DNA of 11,154 nt from Chthonomonadales bacterium. GTDB lineage: Bacteria > Armatimonadota > Chthonomonadetes > Chthonomonadales > Chthonomonadaceae. A model generated the notes under the pieces. That model was not told the origin of the DNA. It saw only the letters and a program-made list of their open reading frames with translations, and did not search any database. Both the position numbers and the translations under genes were made by a program. Location of the stretch: assembly GCA_038217285.1 (NCBI GenBank), contig JBBQPO010000207.1, positions 1 through 11,154 on the forward strand, written 5' to 3'. This document shows positions 1 through 9,743 of this stretch, in pieces. Numbering within the stretch: the first letter of the stretch is position 1; each line of letters begins with the position of its first letter.

Positions 1-843
1 CTGCGTGAGCCATTCTTCCAACCCACTCCACGACTGATATTTGTGGTTACACTTCGCAGAGGAAATCACTTCCAACGTGTTGGGACGTTCCCTGATTCTT
101 TGCTTGAATTCTGTATAAGCACTGTTGCTGTCGCCCAAATCTCTGTTCAAGTAAACAATGAACGTGTCATCTGCGCGGGCTTGAAGAGAAATACGCTGGA
201 CGCAATCCACCCATTTGCCCACTTCTTCAGTGACCCCTCCTTGCTCCCAAAAGTAGGAAAAATAAAAAACGAGTGTTCCTCCGTCTTTGACCGGGCAATC
301 CACTTGCTCAATCCAGTGCGGATTTTTGATGTCAGGGTAGCATCCTCGAAAATGATCTCCAAAGAGATCATCTTGGTTTTGCTTTCTGTTGAAATTCAAG
401 GCGATGTCCGTCATAAAAGAATGGATGTCACACCCCAGATAATCAAGCTCAAGCCGTTTTTTTGCAGGTAAACTTTGCTGGAAATCCGCGAGAGCCATAC
501 ACGCGGTCATCGGACCGCAGCCGACATCAATCATCAAAACATTCGAGGGCTTTTGATAGATGTACGGCTTGAAAAATGTCTGATACTCGCGCTCAATCAC
601 CTTTTTGTTTCCGTCCAGATGCATAGGCATATAGATATAGCTGTATAACAACGCAAGCGCACGGGTTTCGCAAGGAGTTCGTGCGTACCCCAGTATTCTC
701 ATGCGGATATAATGATCGAACGACGAAAATTCGGTTCTGCTTTGCTGGTAGGCGACAAGATAGTGATTGACTTCTTGATTGATTTCTTCGTCCTCACGGA
801 ACGGCTTCAACACAATATCACGGAACGCTTCCTGATATCCCAC
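1..843 (-). CDS. Class I SAM-dependent methyltransferase-fold protein, 3' end outside the window (partial)
   Basis: Manually translated, stop-free minus-strand frame absent from the ORF track. GTG at 843 is preceded by AGGAG. Protein begins MGYQEAFRDIVLKPF and contains LLYSYIYMPMHL, SAM motif I VLMIDVGCGPMT and the beta-2 acidic motif LDYLGCDIH. The frame stays open upstream to 1191, so the start is not certain. Sampled 60-nt lines are 37-50% GC. Confidence 0.8.
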   Translation of the reverse strand, partial: MGYQEAFRDIVLKPFREDEEINQEVNHYLVAYQQSRTEFSSFDHYIRMRILGYARTPCETRALALLYSYIYMPMHLDGNKKVIEREYQTFFKPYIYQKPSNVLMIDVGCGPMTACMALADFQQSLPAKKRLELDYLGCDIHSFMTDIALNFNRKQNQDDLFGDHFRGCYPDIKNPHWIEQVDCPVKDGGTLVFYFSYFWEQGGVTEEVGKWVDCVQRISLQARADDTFIVYLNRDLGDSNSAYTEFKQRIRERPNTLEVISSAKCNHKYQSWSGLEEWLTQ

Positions 844-974
844 TTTATTCTCCTGCTGCCACGCCTCCGAGATGTCGAGCAGCCCATACACCTTCGCCTG
901 AATGTTGGGCAGCGGCAAGTATGCGTGTAAAAAACCCCACATTGGCAAATCGCTGCCCTGATGCCCGGAAAATG

Positions 975-1169
975 TCACGTAATCGGTCGTTTGCGTGACT
1001 CTTCCGTCTTGAACACGAGGCCGTTGTTGTCCTCGATCGCTTGCCGCAGCAGAGCATCGTGGCGCGCGAGGGCGAGGCGCATGTCGTCGGGATGGGCGTC
1101 CCAGAGTTTGGTGCTGCCTTCGATGTCGGTAAAGAGAAAGGTGATGGTTCCTGTGGGAAGAACGGGCAT
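975..1169 (-). pseudogene. Truncated class III adenylate/guanylate cyclase N-terminus (type usually fused to ATPase/TPR domains)
   Basis: MPVLPTGTITFLFTDIEGSTKLWDAHPDDMRLALARHDALLRQAIEDNNGLVFKTE, with a GGAG RBS before the ATG at 1169. Family resemblance ends just before the expected GD motif, and TGA follows at 977-975. Confidence 0.85.
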
Positions 1170-1212
1170 TGCCAAACTCCAACGCAAGGTCTTAACGAGG
1201 GTACGCGGATAG

Positions 1213-1239
1213 ATTCACCGTCTTTTCCAGAATCCCTGC
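1213..1239 (-). promoter_or_regulatory. Putative sigma-H-like promoter for the cyclase remnant
   Basis: Minus strand GCAGGG-N17-GAAT, 43 nt upstream of the ATG at 1169. Confidence 0.5.
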
Positions 1240-1347
1240 ACGAGGGCGAAGGTGAGGAAAGGAAGGGCTCTGTTTCTGTCGGGTAAAACCAGTTCAAGAG
1301 ACTGCTTTTCAGTCCTAACAACGTCTGATAACCTCATTTATGCTCGC

Positions 1348-1376
1348 CAGGGCTGAAGCAGTTGCCTCCAGCCCTG
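1348..1376 (-). terminator. Stem-loop downstream of the hyi-like gene; possible terminator
   Basis: Perfect 8-bp inverted repeat CAGGGCTG...CAGCCCTG with further inner pairing, 15 nt past the stop at 1392. No clear U-tract. Confidence 0.45.
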
Positions 1377-1391
1377 TGGCCTCTCCCGATA

Positions 1392-2150
1392 TTACACGTC
1401 ACAGATGCGGTAGGCCATCTCTAAGCTGATGGAGGCGTCTTTAAGGGGACTGAACTCCTGGCCGACGTACCCGTCATAGTTGGTAGCGGCGATTGCCCGC
1501 ATGATAGCCGGGTAGAAGAGTTCCTGGCTCTCGTCGATTTCGTTGCGACCGGGATTTCCGGCGGTGTGGAAATGGCCGATGTGTTTGATGTTGTTGCGGA
1601 GAGTGCGGATGACGTCGCCTTCCATGATCTGCATGTGGTAGATGTCGTAGAGGAGTTTGACGCGGGGGGAATCGACGGCTTCGCAGGCAGCGACGCCCCA
1701 GGCCGTATGGTCGCACTGGTAGTCGGGATGGTCTACTTTGGAGTTCAGGAGTTCCATGACGAGGGTCACACCGGCGCTCTCAGCGGCCTTTTTGACCCGA
1801 TTCAGACCTTCGACAGTATGCTCCAGGCCGACCGCGTCCGGCAGGCCATTGCGGTTACCGCTGAAGACGATCAGGGCAGGAATGCCCCACTGCACGGCCT
1901 TGGCCAGATTGGCCTCGATCTCCGCTTCGATGCGGTCGTGATTCTCGCGCTTGTTCAGGCCATCGCCGAGGGACTGATGCCCGCCCATCGTGATGATCTT
2001 CAGACCGCCGTCCACGATCTGCGGCCAGAGATTTTCCGGCGCCATCTCGACCCCGGCATAGCCGATAGCGGCCGCGCGGCCGATCAACGCGTCGGCCTCC
2101 ATGTGGCGACCGAAACACCACCAGGCCAGGGACTGCCTTATCTTGCTCAT
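1392..2150 (-). CDS. hyi: Hydroxypyruvate isomerase family (xylose isomerase-like TIM barrel) protein, 252 aa
   Basis: Metal-binding motifs ELLNSKVDHPDYQCD, LLYDIYHMQIMEGD, HFHTAGNPGRNE and GQEF. Start moved to ATG 2150 (MSKIRQS) after an AAAGGAG RBS. True substrate uncertain. Confidence 0.88.
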   Translation of the reverse strand: MSKIRQSLAWWCFGRHMEADALIGRAAAIGYAGVEMAPENLWPQIVDGGLKIITMGGHQSLGDGLNKRENHDRIEAEIEANLAKAVQWGIPALIVFSGNRNGLPDAVGLEHTVEGLNRVKKAAESAGVTLVMELLNSKVDHPDYQCDHTAWGVAACEAVDSPRVKLLYDIYHMQIMEGDVIRTLRNNIKHIGHFHTAGNPGRNEIDESQELFYPAIMRAIAATNYDGYVGQEFSPLKDASISLEMAYRICDV

Positions 2151-2246
2151 CGTCTTGTTTTCTCCTTTGAAGGGTTCCAGGCTCCTCGGCAGGCGCGAAG
2201 ACACCGAAGTGGACGCCGCAGGACGTCGCGCGATACACAAGCGCTT

Positions 2247-2274
2247 TTTCGCGAACTCTTGCCGGATCTCCTGC
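2247..2274 (-). promoter_or_regulatory. Putative sigma-H-like promoter for the hyi-like gene
   Basis: Minus strand GCAGGA-N18-GAAA. Confidence 0.5.
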
Positions 2275-2364
2275 TCTCGGCGCTACCCGTTCGCTTCGCC
2301 CCCGAAGTGGCGTACAAGCATAAATTTCAACTGGGCAGAGGGCCAAATCAGGCGTCTGTGCCGC

Positions 2365-2394
2365 TTGACAGTTGCGAACCGGATAGCCTATAAT
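2365..2394 (+). promoter_or_regulatory. Sigma-70/sigma-A promoter for rpoN
   Basis: TTGACA (2365-2370), 18-nt spacer, TATAAT (2389-2394). Both hexamers are perfect consensus and lie 57 nt upstream of the GTG start. Confidence 0.8.
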
Positions 2395-2451
2395 GAATCT
2401 GCTCTCTTTTTATATGGTGCTGCGTGCGTCTCGAGATCGAGGTTTACGGTC

Positions 2452-3900
2452 GTGCTGCTCCAAAACGATCAACGTCAGGTTATTACTCAGCGGATCGATC
2501 CCAAGATTATCATGGCGAATTCGATCCTTCAGCTTACGTCGATGGAACTGGTACAGTCCGTCGAAAGCGAACTGCTGGAAAATCCGGCCCTGGATACTCT
2601 GGACGATTCTCCCTGCTCCGGCGACTGCATCGATCCCACCAACTGCCCCTACTGCTCCGCGCGACGCCTCCGCGACGCCGACGCCGACCCGCGTTCCGAA
2701 ACCCCCGACTCCGGTGAACAGGAGACCGAATACGAACTCTTCGGATTTCAGACCGCCGAAGCCGAAGAAGAGTACGATTTCGTCGCCAATCTCGAAGCCG
2801 AACTGACCTTTCAGGAGCACCTGCGCGCGCTGATGCGCAATGTCGTGCCCGCCGAAGAGTACTGGATGGCCGAGTATCTCATCAACAGCCTCAATGAACG
2901 CGGCTGGCTGGATGCCGACCTCGACGAGATGGCGGCAGAGATGGGCGTTTCCCCTTCCGACCTGTGTCGGCTGCTCGACCTGCTGCAGACGTGCGACCCG
3001 CCGGGCGTGGGCGCGCGCAACCTGCAGGAGTGTCTGGCCATCCAACTCCGCTACCTGCTGGACGAAGATATCGACGCCGGCAAAAAGCACCTGATCACCT
3101 TCGCCCAAAAGATGGTGACCGAGCACTTCGATCATGTCACCGGACAGCGTCATCTGAAGCTGGCGCGTGCCGTCGGCTGCACGGTCGAGGAGGCGAAACA
3201 GGCGTTGGAGTATATCAGCGCCCGACTCAACCCCTCTCCCGCCAGCCAGTTCCGTCCGCCCTGGGCCTATCGCCCTAACAACAGCACCTCCTCCGTACGC
3301 CCGGACGTCCGGGTGCGACGCACCGAGATCGGTTATGATGTGGAGGTGGGAGGGGCCGATACGTTTTCTCTCTGCGTGAACCCGCAGTATCGCGCGACCT
3401 ACGCCCAGATCAAAAGTGGGAAAGGGCACTATTCCGAAGAGGATCGAAAGAACGTCACGGAGTATGTGGAGCGCGCGGAGATGTTCATTCGCAACCTCAA
3501 CCAGCGGCGGCAGTCCCTGCGGCTGATCACCCACTGCATTATCGAATATCAGATCGGGTTCCTGGAGACCGGATCGCGGCAGTTCCTGCGTCCTCTGACC
3601 CGCACACAGATCGCCCGACACCTCGATCTGCACGAGTCGACCGTGAGCCGCGCCACAGCCAACAAGTTCCTCCAGCTTCCCAATCAGGAAGTGATCAGTT
3701 TCAACCTCTTCTTCAACTCTTCTCTCTCCGTCAAAGACGCCATCGAGGAGATCATCCAGGAGGAAGACCCGGCCCATCCGCTCTCGGACCAGCAGATCGT
3801 AACCCTGCTTCTCGAAAAGGGCATCCATGTCGCCCGCCGCACCGTCGTGAAGTACCGCGAGTCCCAGAAGATCCTCTCCTCCACGCGCCGCCGCCGGTAG
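2452..3900 (+). CDS. rpoN: RNA polymerase sigma-54 factor, 482 aa
   Basis: Region I-like ILQLTSMELVQSVESELLENPALD, core-binding DPPGVGARNLQECL, HTH region LHESTVSRATANK and RpoN box ARRTVVKYRE. GTG at 2452 with GAGG upstream, downstream of the sigma-70 promoter. Confidence 0.96.
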   Translation: MLLQNDQRQVITQRIDPKIIMANSILQLTSMELVQSVESELLENPALDTLDDSPCSGDCIDPTNCPYCSARRLRDADADPRSETPDSGEQETEYELFGFQTAEAEEEYDFVANLEAELTFQEHLRALMRNVVPAEEYWMAEYLINSLNERGWLDADLDEMAAEMGVSPSDLCRLLDLLQTCDPPGVGARNLQECLAIQLRYLLDEDIDAGKKHLITFAQKMVTEHFDHVTGQRHLKLARAVGCTVEEAKQALEYISARLNPSPASQFRPPWAYRPNNSTSSVRPDVRVRRTEIGYDVEVGGADTFSLCVNPQYRATYAQIKSGKGHYSEEDRKNVTEYVERAEMFIRNLNQRRQSLRLITHCIIEYQIGFLETGSRQFLRPLTRTQIARHLDLHESTVSRATANKFLQLPNQEVISFNLFFNSSLSVKDAIEEIIQEEDPAHPLSDQQIVTLLLEKGIHVARRTVVKYRESQKILSSTRRRR

Positions 3901-3901
3901 G

Positions 3902-3927
3902 AAATCCTCCGAAGGAAAGGAGGATTT
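3902..3927 (+). promoter_or_regulatory. Hairpin sequestering a Shine-Dalgarno sequence
   Basis: AAATCCTCC (3902-3910) pairs perfectly with GGAGGATTT (3919-3927), which contains the SD core. Confidence 0.55.
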
Positions 3928-3930
3928 GGA

Positions 3931-4044
3931 ATGCCGCAAAGCGGCGACTTCTTAAAGAAGGAAGGGATACGAACAGGAAGGCAGGAAATCCCCGAGGGAA
4001 TAGGGGTTTCGGGGCTGAGGGTGACTCCGGCGACCGTCGCCTGA
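3931..4044 (+). CDS. Candidate small protein, 37 aa (MPQSGDFLKKEGIRTGRQEIPEGIGVSGLRVTPATVA)
   Basis: AAAGGAGG at 3916-3923, 7-nt spacer, ATG at 3931, TGA at 4042-4044. Lies between rpoN and the terminator. No family recognised. Confidence 0.4.
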   Translation: MPQSGDFLKKEGIRTGRQEIPEGIGVSGLRVTPATVA

Positions 4045-4071
4045 TGCAGACCAGCACGACATCGTAAGCAA

Positions 4072-4111
4072 AGCCCCGGAGGAGCGTTCGCTCTTCCAGG
4101 GCTCCGTTTTT
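4072..4111. terminator. Intrinsic terminator, probably bidirectional
   Basis: AGCCCCGGAGGAGC-GTTC-GCTCTTCCAGGGCT stem, followed by CCGTTTTT on + and TTGCTT on -. Lies between convergent genes. Confidence 0.75.
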
Positions 4112-4120
4112 GCTCTCTCC

Positions 4121-4690
4121 TCAACCGGTGAGAGGCGGATCGAGATAAAGACCGATACCCCTCAGCGCCTCCGCAGTAACTGGAGGCGTAAGGTCGCGAA
4201 CTCGCCGCATAAATTCTCGCCCGGTGAGCCCAAGCGCGCCGAGCGCGCCGATCAATGCGACCTGTTCGTCCTCAGAGAGATCCCTTACTCGATCGACCAG
4301 TTCTCCCAGATCCGAAATCGCCTGTTGCGCCAGCGGATCGTTCAAATACGCAAGCTCGGCATTCTCCTTTCCGTATCGTTGTACGATATGCCAGCTGATC
4401 GCTTCCTCGATTACATCCAGAGCCAGCACGCGAGAGGACTCTGCGGCAAGCAACGGACGCACATGGTAAAACACAGCTTCCGGCGCCCGGACCGCCCACT
4501 CCTCTAAAAGGCGTGTGGCTTCATAGTCCCACTCGTTCCGGATACGTGGTCCCCACTCGCTCAGGTCCGGTGGGATGCGAACAAGATCGATGATGGTATC
4601 CAACCACGCGGCCGGTGCCTCCTGTACCCACTTCGTTCGGTACTCTTCTCGCTCGTCCCAGTCCGTAAATGGCCCGAAGATGTCGCCCAT
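4121..4690 (-). CDS. Hypothetical alpha-helical (HEAT/ARM-like) protein, 189 aa; possibly 5'-damaged
   Basis: Acidic, Trp-containing sequence with amphipathic helices (LALDVIEEAI, ALIGALGALG), ending at the terminator. The best RBS lies upstream of an in-frame TGA. Confidence 0.65.
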   Translation of the reverse strand: MGDIFGPFTDWDEREEYRTKWVQEAPAAWLDTIIDLVRIPPDLSEWGPRIRNEWDYEATRLLEEWAVRAPEAVFYHVRPLLAAESSRVLALDVIEEAISWHIVQRYGKENAELAYLNDPLAQQAISDLGELVDRVRDLSEDEQVALIGALGALGLTGREFMRRVRDLTPPVTAEALRGIGLYLDPPLTG

Positions 4691-4911: not shown

Positions 4912-5880
4912 TCAGGGGGCGAGGGCGGTGTCGATGGCCTGGAGGATCTCGGGGGTGAGCGACTTTCCGACCGCACCGGCGTTGTCGTTGACCTGATCGG
5001 GGCGGCTCGCGCCGATGATGACGCTGGAGACGTTCTTCTGGCGCAGACACCAGGCGAGCGCCAACTGCGCCATGCTCAGTCCGAGTTCCGCAGCGATCGG
5101 TTTGAGTTTCTGAATCCGCTCCAGTACGGCGGAGTCGAGCTCACCGCGATTGAGGAACATATTCTGTTTGGGGTCCGCGGCGCGGCTGTCCGTGGGCGGA
5201 GGCTGGCCCGGCGTGTACTTACCGGTCAGCAGACCTTGCGCGAGCGGTGAGTAGACGATCTGGCCGATGCCTTCGCGCTCGCAGAGCGGGATGATCTCTT
5301 TCTCGATGCCGCGACTCAGCAGATTGTAGTCCGGCTGACTGGAGACAAACCGGTCCAGGTGACGCGCGCGTTGCAGGGCGAGCGCCTCCGCGATCTGCGC
5401 GGGCGACCATTGGCTGAACCCGATGTAGAGCACCTTGCCCTGCGTGACCAGATCGTCGAGGGCGGAGAGCGTCTCTTCCAGCGGGGTCTCGGTGTCGTAA
5501 CGGTGGCACTGGTAGAGATCGATGTAGTCCAGTCCCATACGCTTGAGACTGGCCTCGCACTGCTCCATGATGTGCTTGCGCGAGAGCCCCTTGTTGTTGG
5601 GCATCGGCCCATCGTTCATCTGGAAGAAGACTTTGGTCGCGACCACGTAAGAGTCGCGCGGGAACTTGCTCAGCCCGCGTCCCACGACCTCTTCGCTCTT
5701 GCCCCGTGCATAGACATTCGCGGTATCGAAGAAGTTGATCCCCTGCTCATACGCCCGGTCGATACAGTTTATCGCAGTCTCGTCCTCGGTCGCGTTACCA
5801 AATGTCAGCCAGCTCCCCAGGCAAATTTCAGAAACCTTCACACCACTGTTGCCCAGTCGGCGATACTTCATCTCTGTCAT
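4912..5880 (-). CDS. Aldo/keto reductase (Kv-beta/Tas-like), 322 aa
   Basis: GINFFDTANVY (catalytic D and Y), VATKV, YIDLYQCH, QPDYNLL, YSPLAQGLLTGKY, IIGAS. ATG at 5880 after AAGGAG. Confidence 0.95.
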   Translation of the reverse strand: MTEMKYRRLGNSGVKVSEICLGSWLTFGNATEDETAINCIDRAYEQGINFFDTANVYARGKSEEVVGRGLSKFPRDSYVVATKVFFQMNDGPMPNNKGLSRKHIMEQCEASLKRMGLDYIDLYQCHRYDTETPLEETLSALDDLVTQGKVLYIGFSQWSPAQIAEALALQRARHLDRFVSSQPDYNLLSRGIEKEIIPLCEREGIGQIVYSPLAQGLLTGKYTPGQPPPTDSRAADPKQNMFLNRGELDSAVLERIQKLKPIAAELGLSMAQLALAWCLRQKNVSSVIIGASRPDQVNDNAGAVGKSLTPEILQAIDTALAP

Positions 5881-5970
5881 CGGTTCTCCTTTGCGTCCTA
5901 AATTGGAATTGCAAACCGAGTTGACTACGTCCGACAAGCCCTGTTAGTTGCCTGAATGGTAATAGAAGTT

Positions 5971-6819
5971 CTACCGATAAGGATAGAGGCCGAAGCGCAG
6001 GAGGAGCCAGGCGCAGAGAACGCCGACGGCGCTGGCGAGGAAGTTGACGACATCGTTGTTGATCCAGCGGAAGCCACGGAGGAGTGTGTGGGGCCGGTCG
6101 GCGGTGCGCGGCTGTTCGGTCGATTGGCCGGTCAGGGGATCGCGATAGAGGGCCTGCAGGCTCGCGCCCAGGACACTGTCGAAGAGGCTGCCCAGAAACC
6201 CGGCCCAGACGACCACGACAAACTCCGCCGCATTCAGTCGCCAGACGACCCATCCGGCCAGGGTGACGACAACGCTGCCGACAAGCGCCGCGAAGACCCC
6301 CAGCCCGGTGATCGCGCCGGAGGTGCCGGGCTCGACCCGTTTCCAGTTCGAGAGCAGACGCGGAGCCGATGCGGAGAGGCCGCCGATCTCCGTGGACCAG
6401 GTATCGGCGTTGACGGTGGCCAGCGCGGCGAGATAGAGCAGAAGCAGGTAGCGGGACGTTTCCAGCGGCCAGAGATGCCCGAGAGGCTGGAACAGCAGGG
6501 CGATCAGGGCGGCAGCGCCGCCGTTGGCCAGCACCTGCCCGGCGTCCCGCGTTGCGCCTTTCAAGGCCGTGGCGTCCGCCCCGGCCTTACGGCGGCGTCC
6601 CAGCCGAGACAGCAGGGAGGAGGTGCAGAAGAAGACCAACAGCGGGAAGAGGAACTTTCCGCCTCCCAACCCGAAAACAATAAAGCCGACGACCGCGGTC
6701 GCGAGCGCGCCGCTGCGGGTCAGCAGCTTCAGCCCGTAGGCGAGGAACGCAAAGCCGACGGCGAACAGCGCCGCCAGCCAGAGCTCCGGTTTAATAAGGT
6801 GAGGCAGAAGTGTACTCAT
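5971..6819 (-). CDS. DUF92/TMEM19 family integral membrane protein
   Basis: Motifs LTRSGA, RDAGQVLANGG, ADTWSTEIG, PGTSGAIT, GSLFDSVLGASLQ and NNDVVNF; multiple hydrophobic segments. Confidence 0.92.
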   Translation of the reverse strand: MSTLLPHLIKPELWLAALFAVGFAFLAYGLKLLTRSGALATAVVGFIVFGLGGGKFLFPLLVFFCTSSLLSRLGRRRKAGADATALKGATRDAGQVLANGGAAALIALLFQPLGHLWPLETSRYLLLLYLAALATVNADTWSTEIGGLSASAPRLLSNWKRVEPGTSGAITGLGVFAALVGSVVVTLAGWVVWRLNAAEFVVVVWAGFLGSLFDSVLGASLQALYRDPLTGQSTEQPRTADRPHTLLRGFRWINNDVVNFLASAVGVLCAWLLLRFGLYPYR

Positions 6820-6826
6820 TAAATGG

Positions 6827-7501
6827 TCATTTCGTCGGGCCGCGTGAAGTGAATGGGTCGCCGCGCAGGGTAAACCGCCACAGGTAGTCCTGGGCCTGCG
6901 AGATGCCTATTCGGGGCGTTGCCAGAATCGCCGACGGATCCGTCGGTTCTTGCGGTGGGCTGATCCAGAGCCGCGAGCCGAGCGTCAGATCCACGCCGTT
7001 GAGGGTTCGATCCACTCCCAACGCCTGACAGAGCCGTCCCGGTCCGCCGCATAGCGCTTGCAGACTTCTCAGCCGTGCTCGTTCCGCCGCAGCCTCGTTA
7101 CCGGAAGGCGCCTCCGTTTGGGTTAGACCACGTCGGGTGCGCATCCGTTCCATGCCCGCCAGGGGCTCCAGCGCCCGAATCAAGACCGCCTCTCCTACCC
7201 CCTCCCCGTTGGTCACGGCGTTCAGGCAGCAGTGCGCTCCATAGATGTAGTAGACGTAAGCCTGTCCCGGCGGGCCGAACATGGGCGCGTTGCGGGTCCG
7301 TTGGCCGCCGTAGGAGTGGCTGGACGGATCGTCCTGCGTGTAGGCTTCCGTCTCGGTGATACGACCTGCCACGACGCCCTCCGGCAGCACATGCACCAGC
7401 ACACCGTTGAGCAGTTCGCGTGCTACGGTCACGGTATCCCGATCATAGAACGAACGCGGCAGAGGACTGCCGAACGCTTTTCGGGCTTCCGCCTCGGTCA
7501 T
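6827..7501 (-). CDS. mpg: DNA-3-methyladenine glycosylase (MPG/AAG family)
   Basis: GRITETEAY, MFGPPGQAYVYYIYGAHCCLN, AVLIRALEP, GPGRLCQALG, TPRIGIS and WRF motifs. Confidence 0.95.
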   Translation of the reverse strand: MTEAEARKAFGSPLPRSFYDRDTVTVARELLNGVLVHVLPEGVVAGRITETEAYTQDDPSSHSYGGQRTRNAPMFGPPGQAYVYYIYGAHCCLNAVTNGEGVGEAVLIRALEPLAGMERMRTRRGLTQTEAPSGNEAAAERARLRSLQALCGGPGRLCQALGVDRTLNGVDLTLGSRLWISPPQEPTDPSAILATPRIGISQAQDYLWRFTLRGDPFTSRGPTK

Positions 7502-7513
7502 GCCGCCGTCTCC

Positions 7514-8575
7514 TCAACGCGCAATGTAGTAGAAAGCCAGTCCGACGATCACATAGACCGCCAGCAGTTGCGCGCCTTCAAGCCAGTGGCTCTTGCCATC
7601 CATCGAGATCAACACGCCGATGGCGGCAGCGGAGCTAATGGCGATCAGCTCATAGTTGCTGAACAGGATGGTGACAGGATGCCCCAGGAAAGGACTGACG
7701 AAGATGATGAGCGGCGCTACGAACATCGCAATCTGCGTGCTCGACGAGATCGCGATGTTGAGCGAGATGTCCATCTTGTTCTTCGCCGCCATCATGACCG
7801 CCGTGCTGTGCTCCGCGGCGTTGCCGATGATCGGAAGCAGGATCACCCCCAGAAACAGCTTACCGATATGCCACTGCGACAGGACGGGCTCGATGTCGTG
7901 CACCAGCAGTTCGCTCTCGATGGCCACCAGGCCGGTGCAGCCCAGCAGCACCAGCAGCGCCTTGCTGCGTGACCAGACAGGCGGCTCGGCATGCTCCTCC
8001 TCTCCGCCGCGAAATAGGTTTTCATGGGTGCGGAGCGAGAAGATCAGGCTGCCGACATAGAGAACGACGAGAACACCCGCCACCCCCATGCTCAACGCCG
8101 TGATATTCGGATCGTGCGGCGTCTCGGTGATGCCCCTCACGCGTACAAAGAGCGCCGGGACGAGCAGCGCGATGACGGCGAGGGCCAGCATCGTGGCATG
8201 ACTCTGGGCGACATCCTTGTTGAAGAGCTGCATCTTGTGCTTCAGGCCACCGACCAGCACGGAGAGGCCCAGTACCAGAAGCACATTTCCGATGATCGAG
8301 CCGATCAGCGAGGCTTTCACGACCGCGATCTGACCGCTCTGCACGGCGACGATACAGATAATGAGTTCGGTGGCGTTCCCGAAGGTCGCGGTCAGCAGTC
8401 CCCCGATACCGGGGCCAAGACACTTCGCCAACTCTTCGGTCGCCGTCCCCATAAACCCTGCCAGCGGCACGATCGCCAGGGCGGATATCGCAAACACCCA
8501 TCCCGCCGACGCGTGCATAAAGTGAAGCGCAAGGCTGATCGGCACGAAGATCAGCATCGCCAGCATCCAACGCAT
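7514..8575 (-). CDS. cax: Ca2+/H+ antiporter (CaCA family)
   Basis: Alpha-1 repeat ATFGNATELI and GSIIGNVLLV; alpha-2 repeat IIGNAAEH and SSTQIAMFVAP; acidic loop GGEEEH. Confidence 0.95.
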   Translation of the reverse strand: MRWMLAMLIFVPISLALHFMHASAGWVFAISALAIVPLAGFMGTATEELAKCLGPGIGGLLTATFGNATELIICIVAVQSGQIAVVKASLIGSIIGNVLLVLGLSVLVGGLKHKMQLFNKDVAQSHATMLALAVIALLVPALFVRVRGITETPHDPNITALSMGVAGVLVVLYVGSLIFSLRTHENLFRGGEEEHAEPPVWSRSKALLVLLGCTGLVAIESELLVHDIEPVLSQWHIGKLFLGVILLPIIGNAAEHSTAVMMAAKNKMDISLNIAISSSTQIAMFVAPLIIFVSPFLGHPVTILFSNYELIAISSAAAIGVLISMDGKSHWLEGAQLLAVYVIVGLAFYYIAR

Positions 8576-8696: not shown

Positions 8697-8738
8697 CAAC
8701 AGGCTGTGCCTCATCCCCTTTACGAGGAGCGAACAGAA

Positions 8739-9743
8739 ATGTCTCTGCGGGTCGGAGTGTTGACAGTCAGCGATGGCTGCGCGCGGGGCGAGCGCGAGGA
8801 TGTTTCCGGGCGCGTCCTCGCCGAGATAATGACGGCCAATCAGTATGTCATCGCGGCCCGGACGGTGGTGCCGGATGAGATCCCTCGTATTGCGGCGGTC
8901 TTGACGGAGTGGTGCGACAACGACTGTGACCTGATCCTGACGACCGGTGGAACGGGTTTCGCGCCCCGCGACATCACGCCCGAGGCCACGCGCACCGTCA
9001 TCGAGCGCGAAGCGCCCGGTCTTGCCGAGCTTTTGCGGTGGACCGGCTATCAGAAGCTCGACCGGGCAGTGCTGTCGCGCGGCGTGGCAGGTATCCGCAG
9101 CCGCACTCTGATCGTCAACCTTCCCGGCAGCACCGGCGGCGTCCGCGATGGCCTCGACGTCCTGCTGCCGCTCCTTCCGCACGCCCTCGCCGTGCTTCAG
9201 GACATCCCCGTCGATCACACGCCCCAGGTCCAACCCACGCAGGAGAAGCCAGGGGAAGAAGCTTCTGATACGGAACCCCGGACCGTCGAGGAGATCCGGC
9301 AGACCTCTCCACCGCAGACCGTGGTCGTGATGGAGACCAACCTGGACGACTTCTCCCCGGAGTTCTATGAGGTGCTTATGGAGCGGCTTTTCGCGCAGGG
9401 CGCGGTGGACGTCTTTCTCACGCCGATTCAGATGAAGAAGTCTCGCCCAGCGACGCTGCTGACCGTGCTGGCCCCTCCCGACCGAACGAAGGATCTGGCG
9501 CAGACACTTTTCGCGGAGTCCTCGACCTTCGGCATCCGTTACACAACCATGAATCGCCTCACTCTGGAACGTCGCTGGGAGACGGTCACGACGGAGTACG
9601 GCCCGATTCGCCTCAAGATCGGCCTGAGAAACGGCGTCGAAACCTCCGCCTCCCCCGAGTATGAAGAGGTGAAAGCCGCCGCCCGGCTGCACAATGTCCC
9701 CGTCAAAGCGGTCTATCTCGCGGCCCAGCGGGCTCGTTTGTGA
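8739..9743 (+). CDS. Fusion of a MogA/MoaB molybdopterin adenylyltransferase domain and a LarC C-terminal (LarC2) domain, 334 aa
   Basis: N-terminal motifs VGVLTVSD, VVPDE, LILTTGGTGFAPRDITPEAT, SRGVAG and IVNLPGS; P/T/Q/E-rich linker at about 9201-9320; C-terminal motifs METNLDD, GAVDVFLTPIQMKKSRP, ESSTFGIR, TEYGPIRLK and PEYEEVK. ATG at 8739 after GAGGAG. Confidence 0.92.
   Translation: MSLRVGVLTVSDGCARGEREDVSGRVLAEIMTANQYVIAARTVVPDEIPRIAAVLTEWCDNDCDLILTTGGTGFAPRDITPEATRTVIEREAPGLAELLRWTGYQKLDRAVLSRGVAGIRSRTLIVNLPGSTGGVRDGLDVLLPLLPHALAVLQDIPVDHTPQVQPTQEKPGEEASDTEPRTVEEIRQTSPPQTVVVMETNLDDFSPEFYEVLMERLFAQGAVDVFLTPIQMKKSRPATLLTVLAPPDRTKDLAQTLFAESSTFGIRYTTMNRLTLERRWETVTTEYGPIRLKIGLRNGVETSASPEYEEVKAAARLHNVPVKAVYLAAQRARL

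Follow-up and report, generated by a model that had tools for sequence, protein, structure and literature searches.

The stretch analysed here (the window) comprises 11,154 nucleotides of contig JBBQPO010000207.1 from a Chthonomonadales bacterium (GenBank assembly GCA_038217285.1). The gene under study is a single uninterrupted open reading frame (ORF) on its forward strand, at positions 8739-9743, that encodes a protein of 334 amino acids (P0001). The N-terminal domain of this protein is of the MogA/MoaB type, as found in molybdopterin adenylyltransferases of molybdenum cofactor (Moco) biosynthesis, and the C-terminal domain is LarC2, one half of the nickel-pincer cyclometallase LarC. Neither a LarC nor a molybdenum insertase, P0001 is a LarC2 subunit joined to a MogA-type enzyme. 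The features of the gene are as follows:

8725..8730, forward strand: Shine-Dalgarno-like GAGGAG, 8 nucleotides 5' of the ATG at 8739, from direct sequence reading
8739..9743, forward strand: coding sequence of the MogA-LarC2 fusion, 334 amino acids (P0001), stop codon included, from translation and Pfam and NCBIfam matches
8739..9203, forward strand: MogA/MoaB-type molybdopterin adenylyltransferase domain, amino acids 1-155, from PF00994 (E-value 1.3e-30) and structural relatives
9204..9314, forward strand: disordered low-complexity interdomain linker, amino acids 156-192 (about 37 residues), from the predicted local distance difference test (pLDDT), alignment and the ratio of nonsynonymous to synonymous substitution rates (dN/dS)
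9315..9740, forward strand: LarC2 domain, the cytidine triphosphate (CTP)-binding half of the nickel-pincer cyclometallase LarC, amino acids 193-334, from NF052512 and the structures 12bi and 6bwo

The MogA-type domain of P0001 is complete. The Pfam family PF00994 (MoCF_biosynth) matches residues 6-148 over profile positions 1-144 of 144, and the same part of the protein matches NCBIfam models of the MogA/MoaB type, including TIGR00177 (119.8 bits against a cut-off of 85.35). The motifs PDE (residues 45-47), GGTG (residues 70-73) and RDITPE (residues 77-82) are present, as is a PGS motif. Two aspartates, D46 (positions 8874-8876) and D78 (positions 8970-8972), align with D61 and D94 of gephyrin, which correspond to Asp49 and Asp82 of MogA and to D515 and D548 of Cnx1G and are critical for the adenylylation of molybdopterin (PMC9458074). 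The closest solved relatives by sequence are MoaB of T. thermophilus (2is8, E-value 2.4e-49), the G domain of gephyrin (1ihc) and Cnx1G (1uuy), with matches over the solved relatives, MogA of E. coli (1di6) included, ranging from 2.4e-49 to 1.6e-22. In a Foldseek comparison, the modelled N-terminal domain superposes on Cnx1G with a root-mean-square deviation of 0.9 Å, and template-modelling scores are about 0.9 against Cnx1G, gephyrin G and MoaB.

The C-terminal domain corresponds to the second half of LarC only. PF01969 (Ni_insertion) matches residues 187-326 over profile positions 237-375 of 375 (E-value 4.5e-48), and NF052512 (nickel_LarC2) matches over its full profile (residues 195-312, positions 1-118 of 118, 150 bits against a cut-off of 50). 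The motifs ETNLDD (residues 199-204), MKKSRP (residues 232-237) and PEYE (residues 306-309) are retained. The domain aligns end to end with residues 264-407 of M. thermoacetica LarC (12bi, E-value 9.6e-31) and with the crystal structure of L. plantarum LarC2 (6bwo, E-value 1.6e-26), and the modelled domain superposes on L. plantarum LarC2. MoeA_N and MoeA_C are absent from P0001 in the Pfam scan. An internal start at M198, which would give a separate LarC2, was rejected because this methionine is not conserved and the consensus at its position is leucine.

The AlphaFold2 model of the fusion, built from a 27-row alignment, has a mean pLDDT of 89.4 and a predicted template-modelling score (pTM) of 0.51, with confident domains at about residues 1-155 and 193-334. 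The linker between them is predicted to be disordered (pLDDT below 50 at residues 168-173 and 177-187), and every linker column stays below 90% identity in this alignment (A2). The first-pass annotation, made from the letters of the window, had described an uninterrupted MogA/MoaB-LarC2 frame with these motifs and without the LarC1 part, and a low-complexity linker of about 40 residues. Pfam, NCBIfam and the translation bear this description out. It had also seen no lar, moa or moe gene in the window, and a scan of ten other window ORFs detected none; these encode among others RpoN, an aldo/keto reductase, a DUF92 protein, a methylpurine glycosylase, a Ca/cation exchanger and a ROK kinase.

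The fusion is a property of the family to which the window organism belongs, an Armatimonadota family (f1) whose close homologues are labelled Chthonomonadaceae by their sources. A single stop-free frame with both domains was verified in 25 f1 genomes (17 + 8) from 19 genera, including assemblies of 1 to 5 contigs, and an assembly artefact is ruled out; the concern that the fusion might be unique to one assembly is thereby removed. Among the 27 f1 genomes examined, the remaining two are G018, which holds only a fragment at a contig edge, and G003, an 85%-complete genome in which the fusion was not found. In a collection of 5.8 billion proteins, all 120 listed homologues (55-100% identity) contain both Pfam domains, and those named by their sources are labelled Chthonomonadaceae, Chthonomonadales or Armatimonadetes. 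The single exception is P0096 (62% identity), labelled Chloroherpetonaceae, a family of a different phylum, which could reflect a binning error or gene transfer.

Wider surveys give the same picture. Across 301 sampled genomes of the phylum, for which a further 274 weaker matches lie beyond those listed, two-domain or frame-paired matches are listed for all 18 f1 genomes (the window organism's included), and none of the matches listed for the 283 other genomes spans both domains. In those genomes the listed MogA-type matches lie in frames of about 160-280 amino acids, and LarC2 matches lie elsewhere, in frames of about 390-500 amino acids. A filter-free search of 1.84 billion representatives at 50% identity places two whole fusions (P0070 and P0121) and one partial fusion (P0124) in the top 150, the domain make-up of P0121 and P0124 being confirmed by Pfam. 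The other long MogA-containing matches among the top 150 are fusions to XdhC, MobB or MoeA modules. The MogA-LarC2 fusion is lineage-specific and assembled from two known families.

The genome of the window organism (G000; a 6.2-Mb assembly of 459 contigs, 95% complete) encodes the remaining components of both pathways in separate places. PF01969 has exactly two matches, the LarC2 domain of the fusion and a LarC1-only gene on contig C74 (profile positions 1-235). The latter gene (locus L006, positions 7521-8336, reverse strand) encodes a free-standing LarC1, the part of LarC that is rich in histidine and binds nickel, and matches TIGR00299 nickel_LarC1 with 205 bits. LarE (322 bits) adjoins LarB (286 bits against a cut-off of 175) on contig C303, and one LarA-type Lar_N match is found on contig C38 (E-value 1.9e-62). 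PF00994 has three matches, namely CinA, MoeA and the fusion, and the fusion is the sole MogA/MoaB-type domain and the sole LarC2 of the genome. MoeA is encoded apart, by a gene of 448 amino acids on contig C128, and MoaC and MoaA were also detected. Moco enzyme families are represented by two MoCoBD_1, five PF00384 and three Oxidored_molyb (sulfite-oxidase-type) matches.

The separation of LarC1 from LarC2 extends over the family. LarC1-only matches are observed in 17 and LarC2-only matches in 18 of 19 f1 genomes surveyed (the window organism's included), and a full-length LarC in none of them. In complete f1 genomes (for example G007 and G015), the LarC1 and fusion genes lie megabases apart. 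LarB was detected in 17 of 18 f1 relatives, as was MoeA_N. In the sister families f2 and f3 of the same order, a full-length LarC covering profile positions 1-375 is present in 11 of 12 genomes, and MogA, if detected at all, is encoded on its own. All 25 LarC genes fetched from outside f1 hold both halves in one frame. Among the three roles that the first-pass annotation had suggested for the LarC2 domain, these findings favour completion of a split LarC in trans: the window organism has a separate LarC1, a larE-larB pair and a larA homologue, and the 19 genomes lack a full-length LarC.

Both halves of the split LarC look functional when residue conservation is used as a proxy. Among 25 full-length LarC proteins, 26 columns of the LarC2 part and 49 of the LarC1 part do not vary. 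The 26 fused forms retain 18 of these LarC2 columns without exception, and each of the remaining 8 is kept by 21-25 of them; of the LarC1 columns, 42 are unchanged in every one of the 14 stand-alone proteins. The stand-alone LarC1 proteins form one clade (SH-aLRT support 100), and the fused LarC2 domains cluster with LarC2 domains of the same order (SH-aLRT 92), in a group whose inner branching the 142-column tree does not resolve; the tree is compatible with a single origin of the fused LarC2 domains and does not prove it. As a separate observation on the LarC1 proteins, their clade sits on a long stem branch, and in alignment A1 (14 rows) two positions that are invariant in full-length LarC are changed, position 191 in 13 of 14 and position 212 in all 14 rows. 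These changes and the long stem may be adaptations to untethered working.

The gene inventory also bears on the two other suggestions of the first-pass annotation, which had read the protein as a gephyrin-like pairing. In that reading, LarC2 stands in the place of MoeA and carries out CTP-dependent activation or metal insertion on the pterin-dithiolene molybdopterin, or links Moco and nickel-pincer synthesis chemically. A formal analogy speaks for it, in that each enzyme modifies the phosphate of a cofactor precursor: MogA adenylylates one that bears a dithiolene, and LarC2 cytidylylates a bis-thiocarboxylate (PMC13510736). The same paper likens the chemistry of LarC to that of Cnx1 and reports that LarC converts P2TAD, an analogue carrying adenosine monophosphate (AMP) (PMC13510736). 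Against it stand the normal, separate MoeA of the window organism and the presence of MoeA_N in nearly all of its relatives. The fused LarC2 moreover keeps the invariant residues of ordinary LarC and co-occurs with LarB and LarC1 in the 17 genomes counted above for each. A further argument against this reading is provided by f1 members that appear to have lost the Moco pathway.

The clearest such case is G007, from a second f1 genus (g4), whose genome is complete in one contig. MoeA_N, MoaC, the C-terminal domain of MoaA and MoaE were all not found in it, nor was any MoCoBD_1 or Oxidored_molyb match, and its sole PF00384 match is NuoG (TIGR01973, 561 bits). LarB, LarC1 and the fusion are retained. 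In G305, a 90%-complete metagenome-assembled genome of the same genus, the two markers tried, MoeA_N and MoaC, were not found. The fusions of G007 and G305 form one clade (SH-aLRT 98) with P0121, a metagenomic protein. The 26 available fusions were aligned, and the 37 MogA and 21 LarC2 columns without variation in the remaining 23 served as the reference. G007 deviates at 10, G305 at 11 and P0121 at 19 of the 37 MogA columns, and all three deviate at none of the 21 LarC2 columns. In a leave-one-out control of 17 genomes, the other genomes deviate at 0-3 MogA columns.

The residues lost from the MogA domain of this clade include those critical for catalysis. D78 is replaced by alanine in G007 and G305 and D46 by glycine in P0121, both aspartates being invariant in the 23 non-decayed fusions. 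Further motif positions changed in the decayed forms are S11, S23, T69, T80 and G130, and GGTG reads GGSS in P0121. Because the MogA motifs are conserved in step with the Moco pathway, the MogA domain of the window protein is most likely a working adenylyltransferase, and the decayed domain of the Moco-less genus is an apparent pseudo-enzyme. LarC2 is conserved irrespective of that pathway, which speaks against an action of LarC2 on a pterin and indicates, at the level of residue conservation, that the function of LarC2 is independent of Moco synthesis. With LarC2 fully conserved where Moco markers are missing while the MogA motifs decay, we give the gephyrin-like reading next to no weight.

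The decayed MogA domain has nevertheless been maintained. It matches 142 of 148 positions of TIGR00177, and between G007 and G305 its Nei-Gojobori dN/dS is 0.092 (156 codons, dS 0.83), close to the 0.102 of LarC2 in the same pair, with 0.34 in the linker. Pairs of Moco-containing genomes give similar values for the domains, 0.05 to 0.15. These figures bear on a simpler account of the fusion as a neutral "Rosetta-stone" accident, in which two unrelated housekeeping enzymes were joined and work fully independently, MogA has no part in nickel-pincer synthesis and the fusion is merely harmless. The disordered, fast-evolving linker fits such an account, as does a pTM of 0.51, which is expected where there is no fixed domain orientation. 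Each domain has an obvious pathway of its own in the genome of the window organism, MogA is elsewhere fused to XdhC, MobB, MoaC and MoeA modules, and the gene neighbours of the fusion are unrelated and variable. However, a functionless appendage should drift or be deleted, whereas the MogA domain that has lost its catalytic motifs is full length and as constrained as LarC2. The fusion is also retained in 25 of the 27 f1 genomes, and a stand-alone MogA-type match was not found in any of the seven genomes of sister family f3 that lack Moco markers. We regard the neutral accident as unlikely, although it deserves some weight. The first-pass annotation had raised a related doubt, that a separate LarC1 together with larBE would account for everything, with each domain acting independently; the first part of this doubt stands, since LarC1 and larBE are present, and the second is weakened by the dN/dS of the decayed domain. 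As purifying selection still acts on this domain, the two halves may depend on each other to some extent.

Purifying selection on the decayed domain, taken together with the lack of a stand-alone MogA-type match in the f3 genomes without Moco markers, suggests for the fused MogA domain a role that is neither catalytic nor tied to Moco, perhaps that of a scaffold. A different use of the domain would be as a ligand-handling module of nickel-pincer synthesis that binds or delivers P2TMN or a dinucleotide intermediate to LarC2 or LarC1. This use would also account for selection after the loss of Moco, and it draws on the pocket-lining elements that are invariant even in the decayed forms (G70, G71, P81, E82, A83, R114 and G115) and on the related MoCF-type domains of CinA/COG1058 proteins, which handle pyridine nucleotides or ADP-ribose (PMC3680494). 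The changes at S11, S23, T69, D78, T80 and G130, along with the GGSS of P0121, argue against a conserved nucleotide-binding pocket, and we consider a ligand-handling role very unlikely.

In the explanation that we consider probable, the protein is bifunctional, with a LarC2 half that completes a naturally split LarC in trans and a MogA half that also serves as a scaffold. From the architecture, distribution, gene inventory, residue conservation and selection pattern observed, we infer enzyme activities, an oligomeric state and a scaffold role that would fit together as follows. An ancestral full-length larC would have been split in one Armatimonadota family, its LarC2 half being joined to the C-terminus of the housekeeping MogA/MoaB and its LarC1 half being left behind as a free-standing gene elsewhere. 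The N-terminal domain would adenylylate molybdopterin and supply the product (MPT-AMP) to the separate MoeA. The C-terminal domain would form an oligomeric CTP-binding core like that of canonical LarC2 and would CMPylate P2TMN made by LarB and LarE, and the intermediate would pass to the untethered LarC1 for insertion of nickel, yielding the nickel-pincer cofactor for the LarA homologue. The MogA domain would double as a Moco-independent trimeric scaffold or docking module, most likely at the position held by the LarC1 trimer in canonical LarC.

The canonical enzyme provides the framework for this proposal. LarC is described as the sole known biological cyclometallase (PMC13510736). In a 2026 model derived from cryogenic electron microscopy, LarC2 CMPylates P2TMN and hands the intermediate to the tethered LarC1; the LarC2 core is built as a dimer of trimers, and the LarC1 trimers that flank it are attached at the N-terminus of LarC2 (PMC13510736). 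In L. plantarum, LarC is produced from adjacent ORFs by way of a frameshift (PMC13510736). MogA is itself a trimer (PMC9458074). By analogy with these assemblies, a trimeric MogA on a LarC2 dimer of trimers makes a structural role of the MogA domain plausible. A more specific version is possible, although we put its chances somewhat below even: MogA would have been exapted as a non-catalytic trimeric platform on the faces of the LarC2 hexamer, the LarC1 sites of canonical LarC, where it would recruit or gate free LarC1 and replace the covalent tether. In most f1 members the domain would then be both a Moco enzyme and a LarC scaffold, and in the Moco-less genus purely a pseudo-enzyme scaffold. 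A complex prediction with the fusion (27 rows) and LarC1 (14 rows) gave a score of 0.00 in both runs and speaks neither for nor against binding.

Several points weigh against a split LarC with a MogA scaffold. In M. thermoacetica LarC, deleting, shortening, stiffening or replacing the 13-residue tether between LarC1 and LarC2 lowers activity to below 10% (PMC13510736), and given this sensitivity a split LarC that works in trans is not self-evident. The integrity of LarC2 is judged from a conservation proxy. The gene neighbourhoods of the fusion, in the window and in four further f1 genomes, are varied, contain no lar or moa genes and lend no support to a coupling of the two pathways. MoaE (PF02391) was not found in the window organism's 95%-complete, 459-contig genome and is present in three of four congeners; its absence is probably an assembly gap. 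In G305, a 1.9-kb contig bears a fragment of the xanthine dehydrogenase family, so that the Moco-free status of this genome is less clean than that of G007. Because G007, G305 and P0121 form one clade, the Moco-less evidence is a single evolutionary event, and the dN/dS of the decayed MogA domain comes from one species pair. Finally, a low dN/dS could also arise if misfolding of the MogA part were selected against because of its attachment to a LarC2 that the cell needs.

Comparison with known systems shows what is shared and what is particular to the f1 protein. As in canonical LarC, the LarC2 domain is full length, keeps the LarC-invariant residues and co-occurs with LarB, LarE and LarA-type genes. 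Canonical LarC is one chain of LarC1, linker and LarC2, whereas f1 genomes encode LarC1 on its own and have a MogA domain attached to the N-terminus of LarC2. Similar to the MogA and MoaB structures 2is8, 1ihc, 1uuy and 1di6, the N-terminal domain has the family fold, the motifs and both critical aspartates, and MoeA, MoaA and MoaC are encoded in the genome; the f1 protein differs from these in bearing a C-terminal domain of another cofactor pathway and in being an apparent pseudo-enzyme in one genus. The combination of a MogA-type domain, a flexible linker and a second cofactor-biosynthesis domain is shared with gephyrin/Cnx1 and with the MoaC-MoaB, MogA-MobB and MogA-XdhC fusions. In those proteins the partner belongs to the Moco pathway, whereas in f1 it is the nickel-pincer LarC2, and MoeA is separate.

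In agreement with the first-pass annotation, which knew of no characterised protein of this architecture, a literature search found no description of a MogA-LarC2 fusion or of an unlinked LarC1/LarC2 pair, although an earlier mention is possible in Desguin 2018, in Turmo 2022 or in supplements. Such a fusion goes unmentioned in the main text of PMC13510736 and in PMC13524815 and PMC11796402, and PMC11489736, on molybdenum-insertase fusions, mentions neither LarC nor nickel.

The neighbouring genes are recorded here as separate observations. In the window and in G016, a divergent Ca/cation exchanger gene lies upstream of the fusion and a ROK kinase gene downstream, and in G015 a gene for an HD-domain protein is found nearby. 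In G007 (L018, positions 6907-8106, reverse strand) and G006 (L021, positions 5639-6889, reverse strand), a HEAT-repeat/AhpC-TSA (thioredoxin-like) gene lies directly upstream on the same strand and overlaps the start of the fusion by 4 nucleotides; it may be an operon partner of the fusion in these two genomes. The LarC1 gene on contig C74 of the window organism is flanked by a response regulator, an unassigned ORF and a bpX6 protein, and no lar gene is found near it on that contig. The surrounding parts of this locus (L006, positions 1-4298 and 9399-12467) hold type I-E CRISPR genes (Cse1 and Cas3), a WYL regulator and a 1022-residue bpX6-domain protein, whose bpX6 domain belongs to MoxR-vWA-beta-propeller ternary systems.

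The neighbours of stand-alone MogA, scanned in two sister-family genomes, likewise include no lar or moa genes. A separate observation concerns a sister-family locus (L035, contig C55 of G029) with a compact MoaA - MoaC - MogA - MoeA - MoaE cluster, in which the MogA-type domain occupies residues 170-321 of a stop-free frame of 326 amino acids; MoaC is matched within a frame of equal length. The tblastn match to the MogA part contained in-match stops (one TGA and one TAG), and the region may hold a frameshift or a fusion of the MoaC-MoaB type. At the other end of the window, positions 1-1182 on the reverse strand carry an ORF of 394 amino acids that runs off the window start and has no Pfam match. 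The first 1 kb of the window has a GC content of 47%, against about 60% in the remainder, and the window start may be foreign or mobile DNA.

The f1 proteins are of consequence for the view of LarC as a tethered enzyme. The family is a natural counter-example to the LarC tether, in that LarC1 is untethered and LarC2 is tied to another, presumably trimeric, enzyme in at least 19 genera. With the mechanism of LarC unsettled, this system bears on the need for a tether and on its substitution by another oligomeric module. If the trimeric platform is correct, it would physically link the assembly of two sulfur-containing, nucleotide-activated metal cofactors and would put the linker-dependent transfer model of 2026 for LarC to a test in nature. 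The source names "molybdenum cofactor synthesis domain protein" and "nickel insertion protein" each conceal half of the fusion, and they conceal the split LarC of the family as well. For the f1 lineage itself, the loss of Moco is informative: in a sister family stand-alone MogA was no longer found, whereas the fused MogA is kept, has lost catalytic residues and is under purifying selection, which makes it a clean example of a fusion turning an enzyme into a selected pseudo-enzyme.

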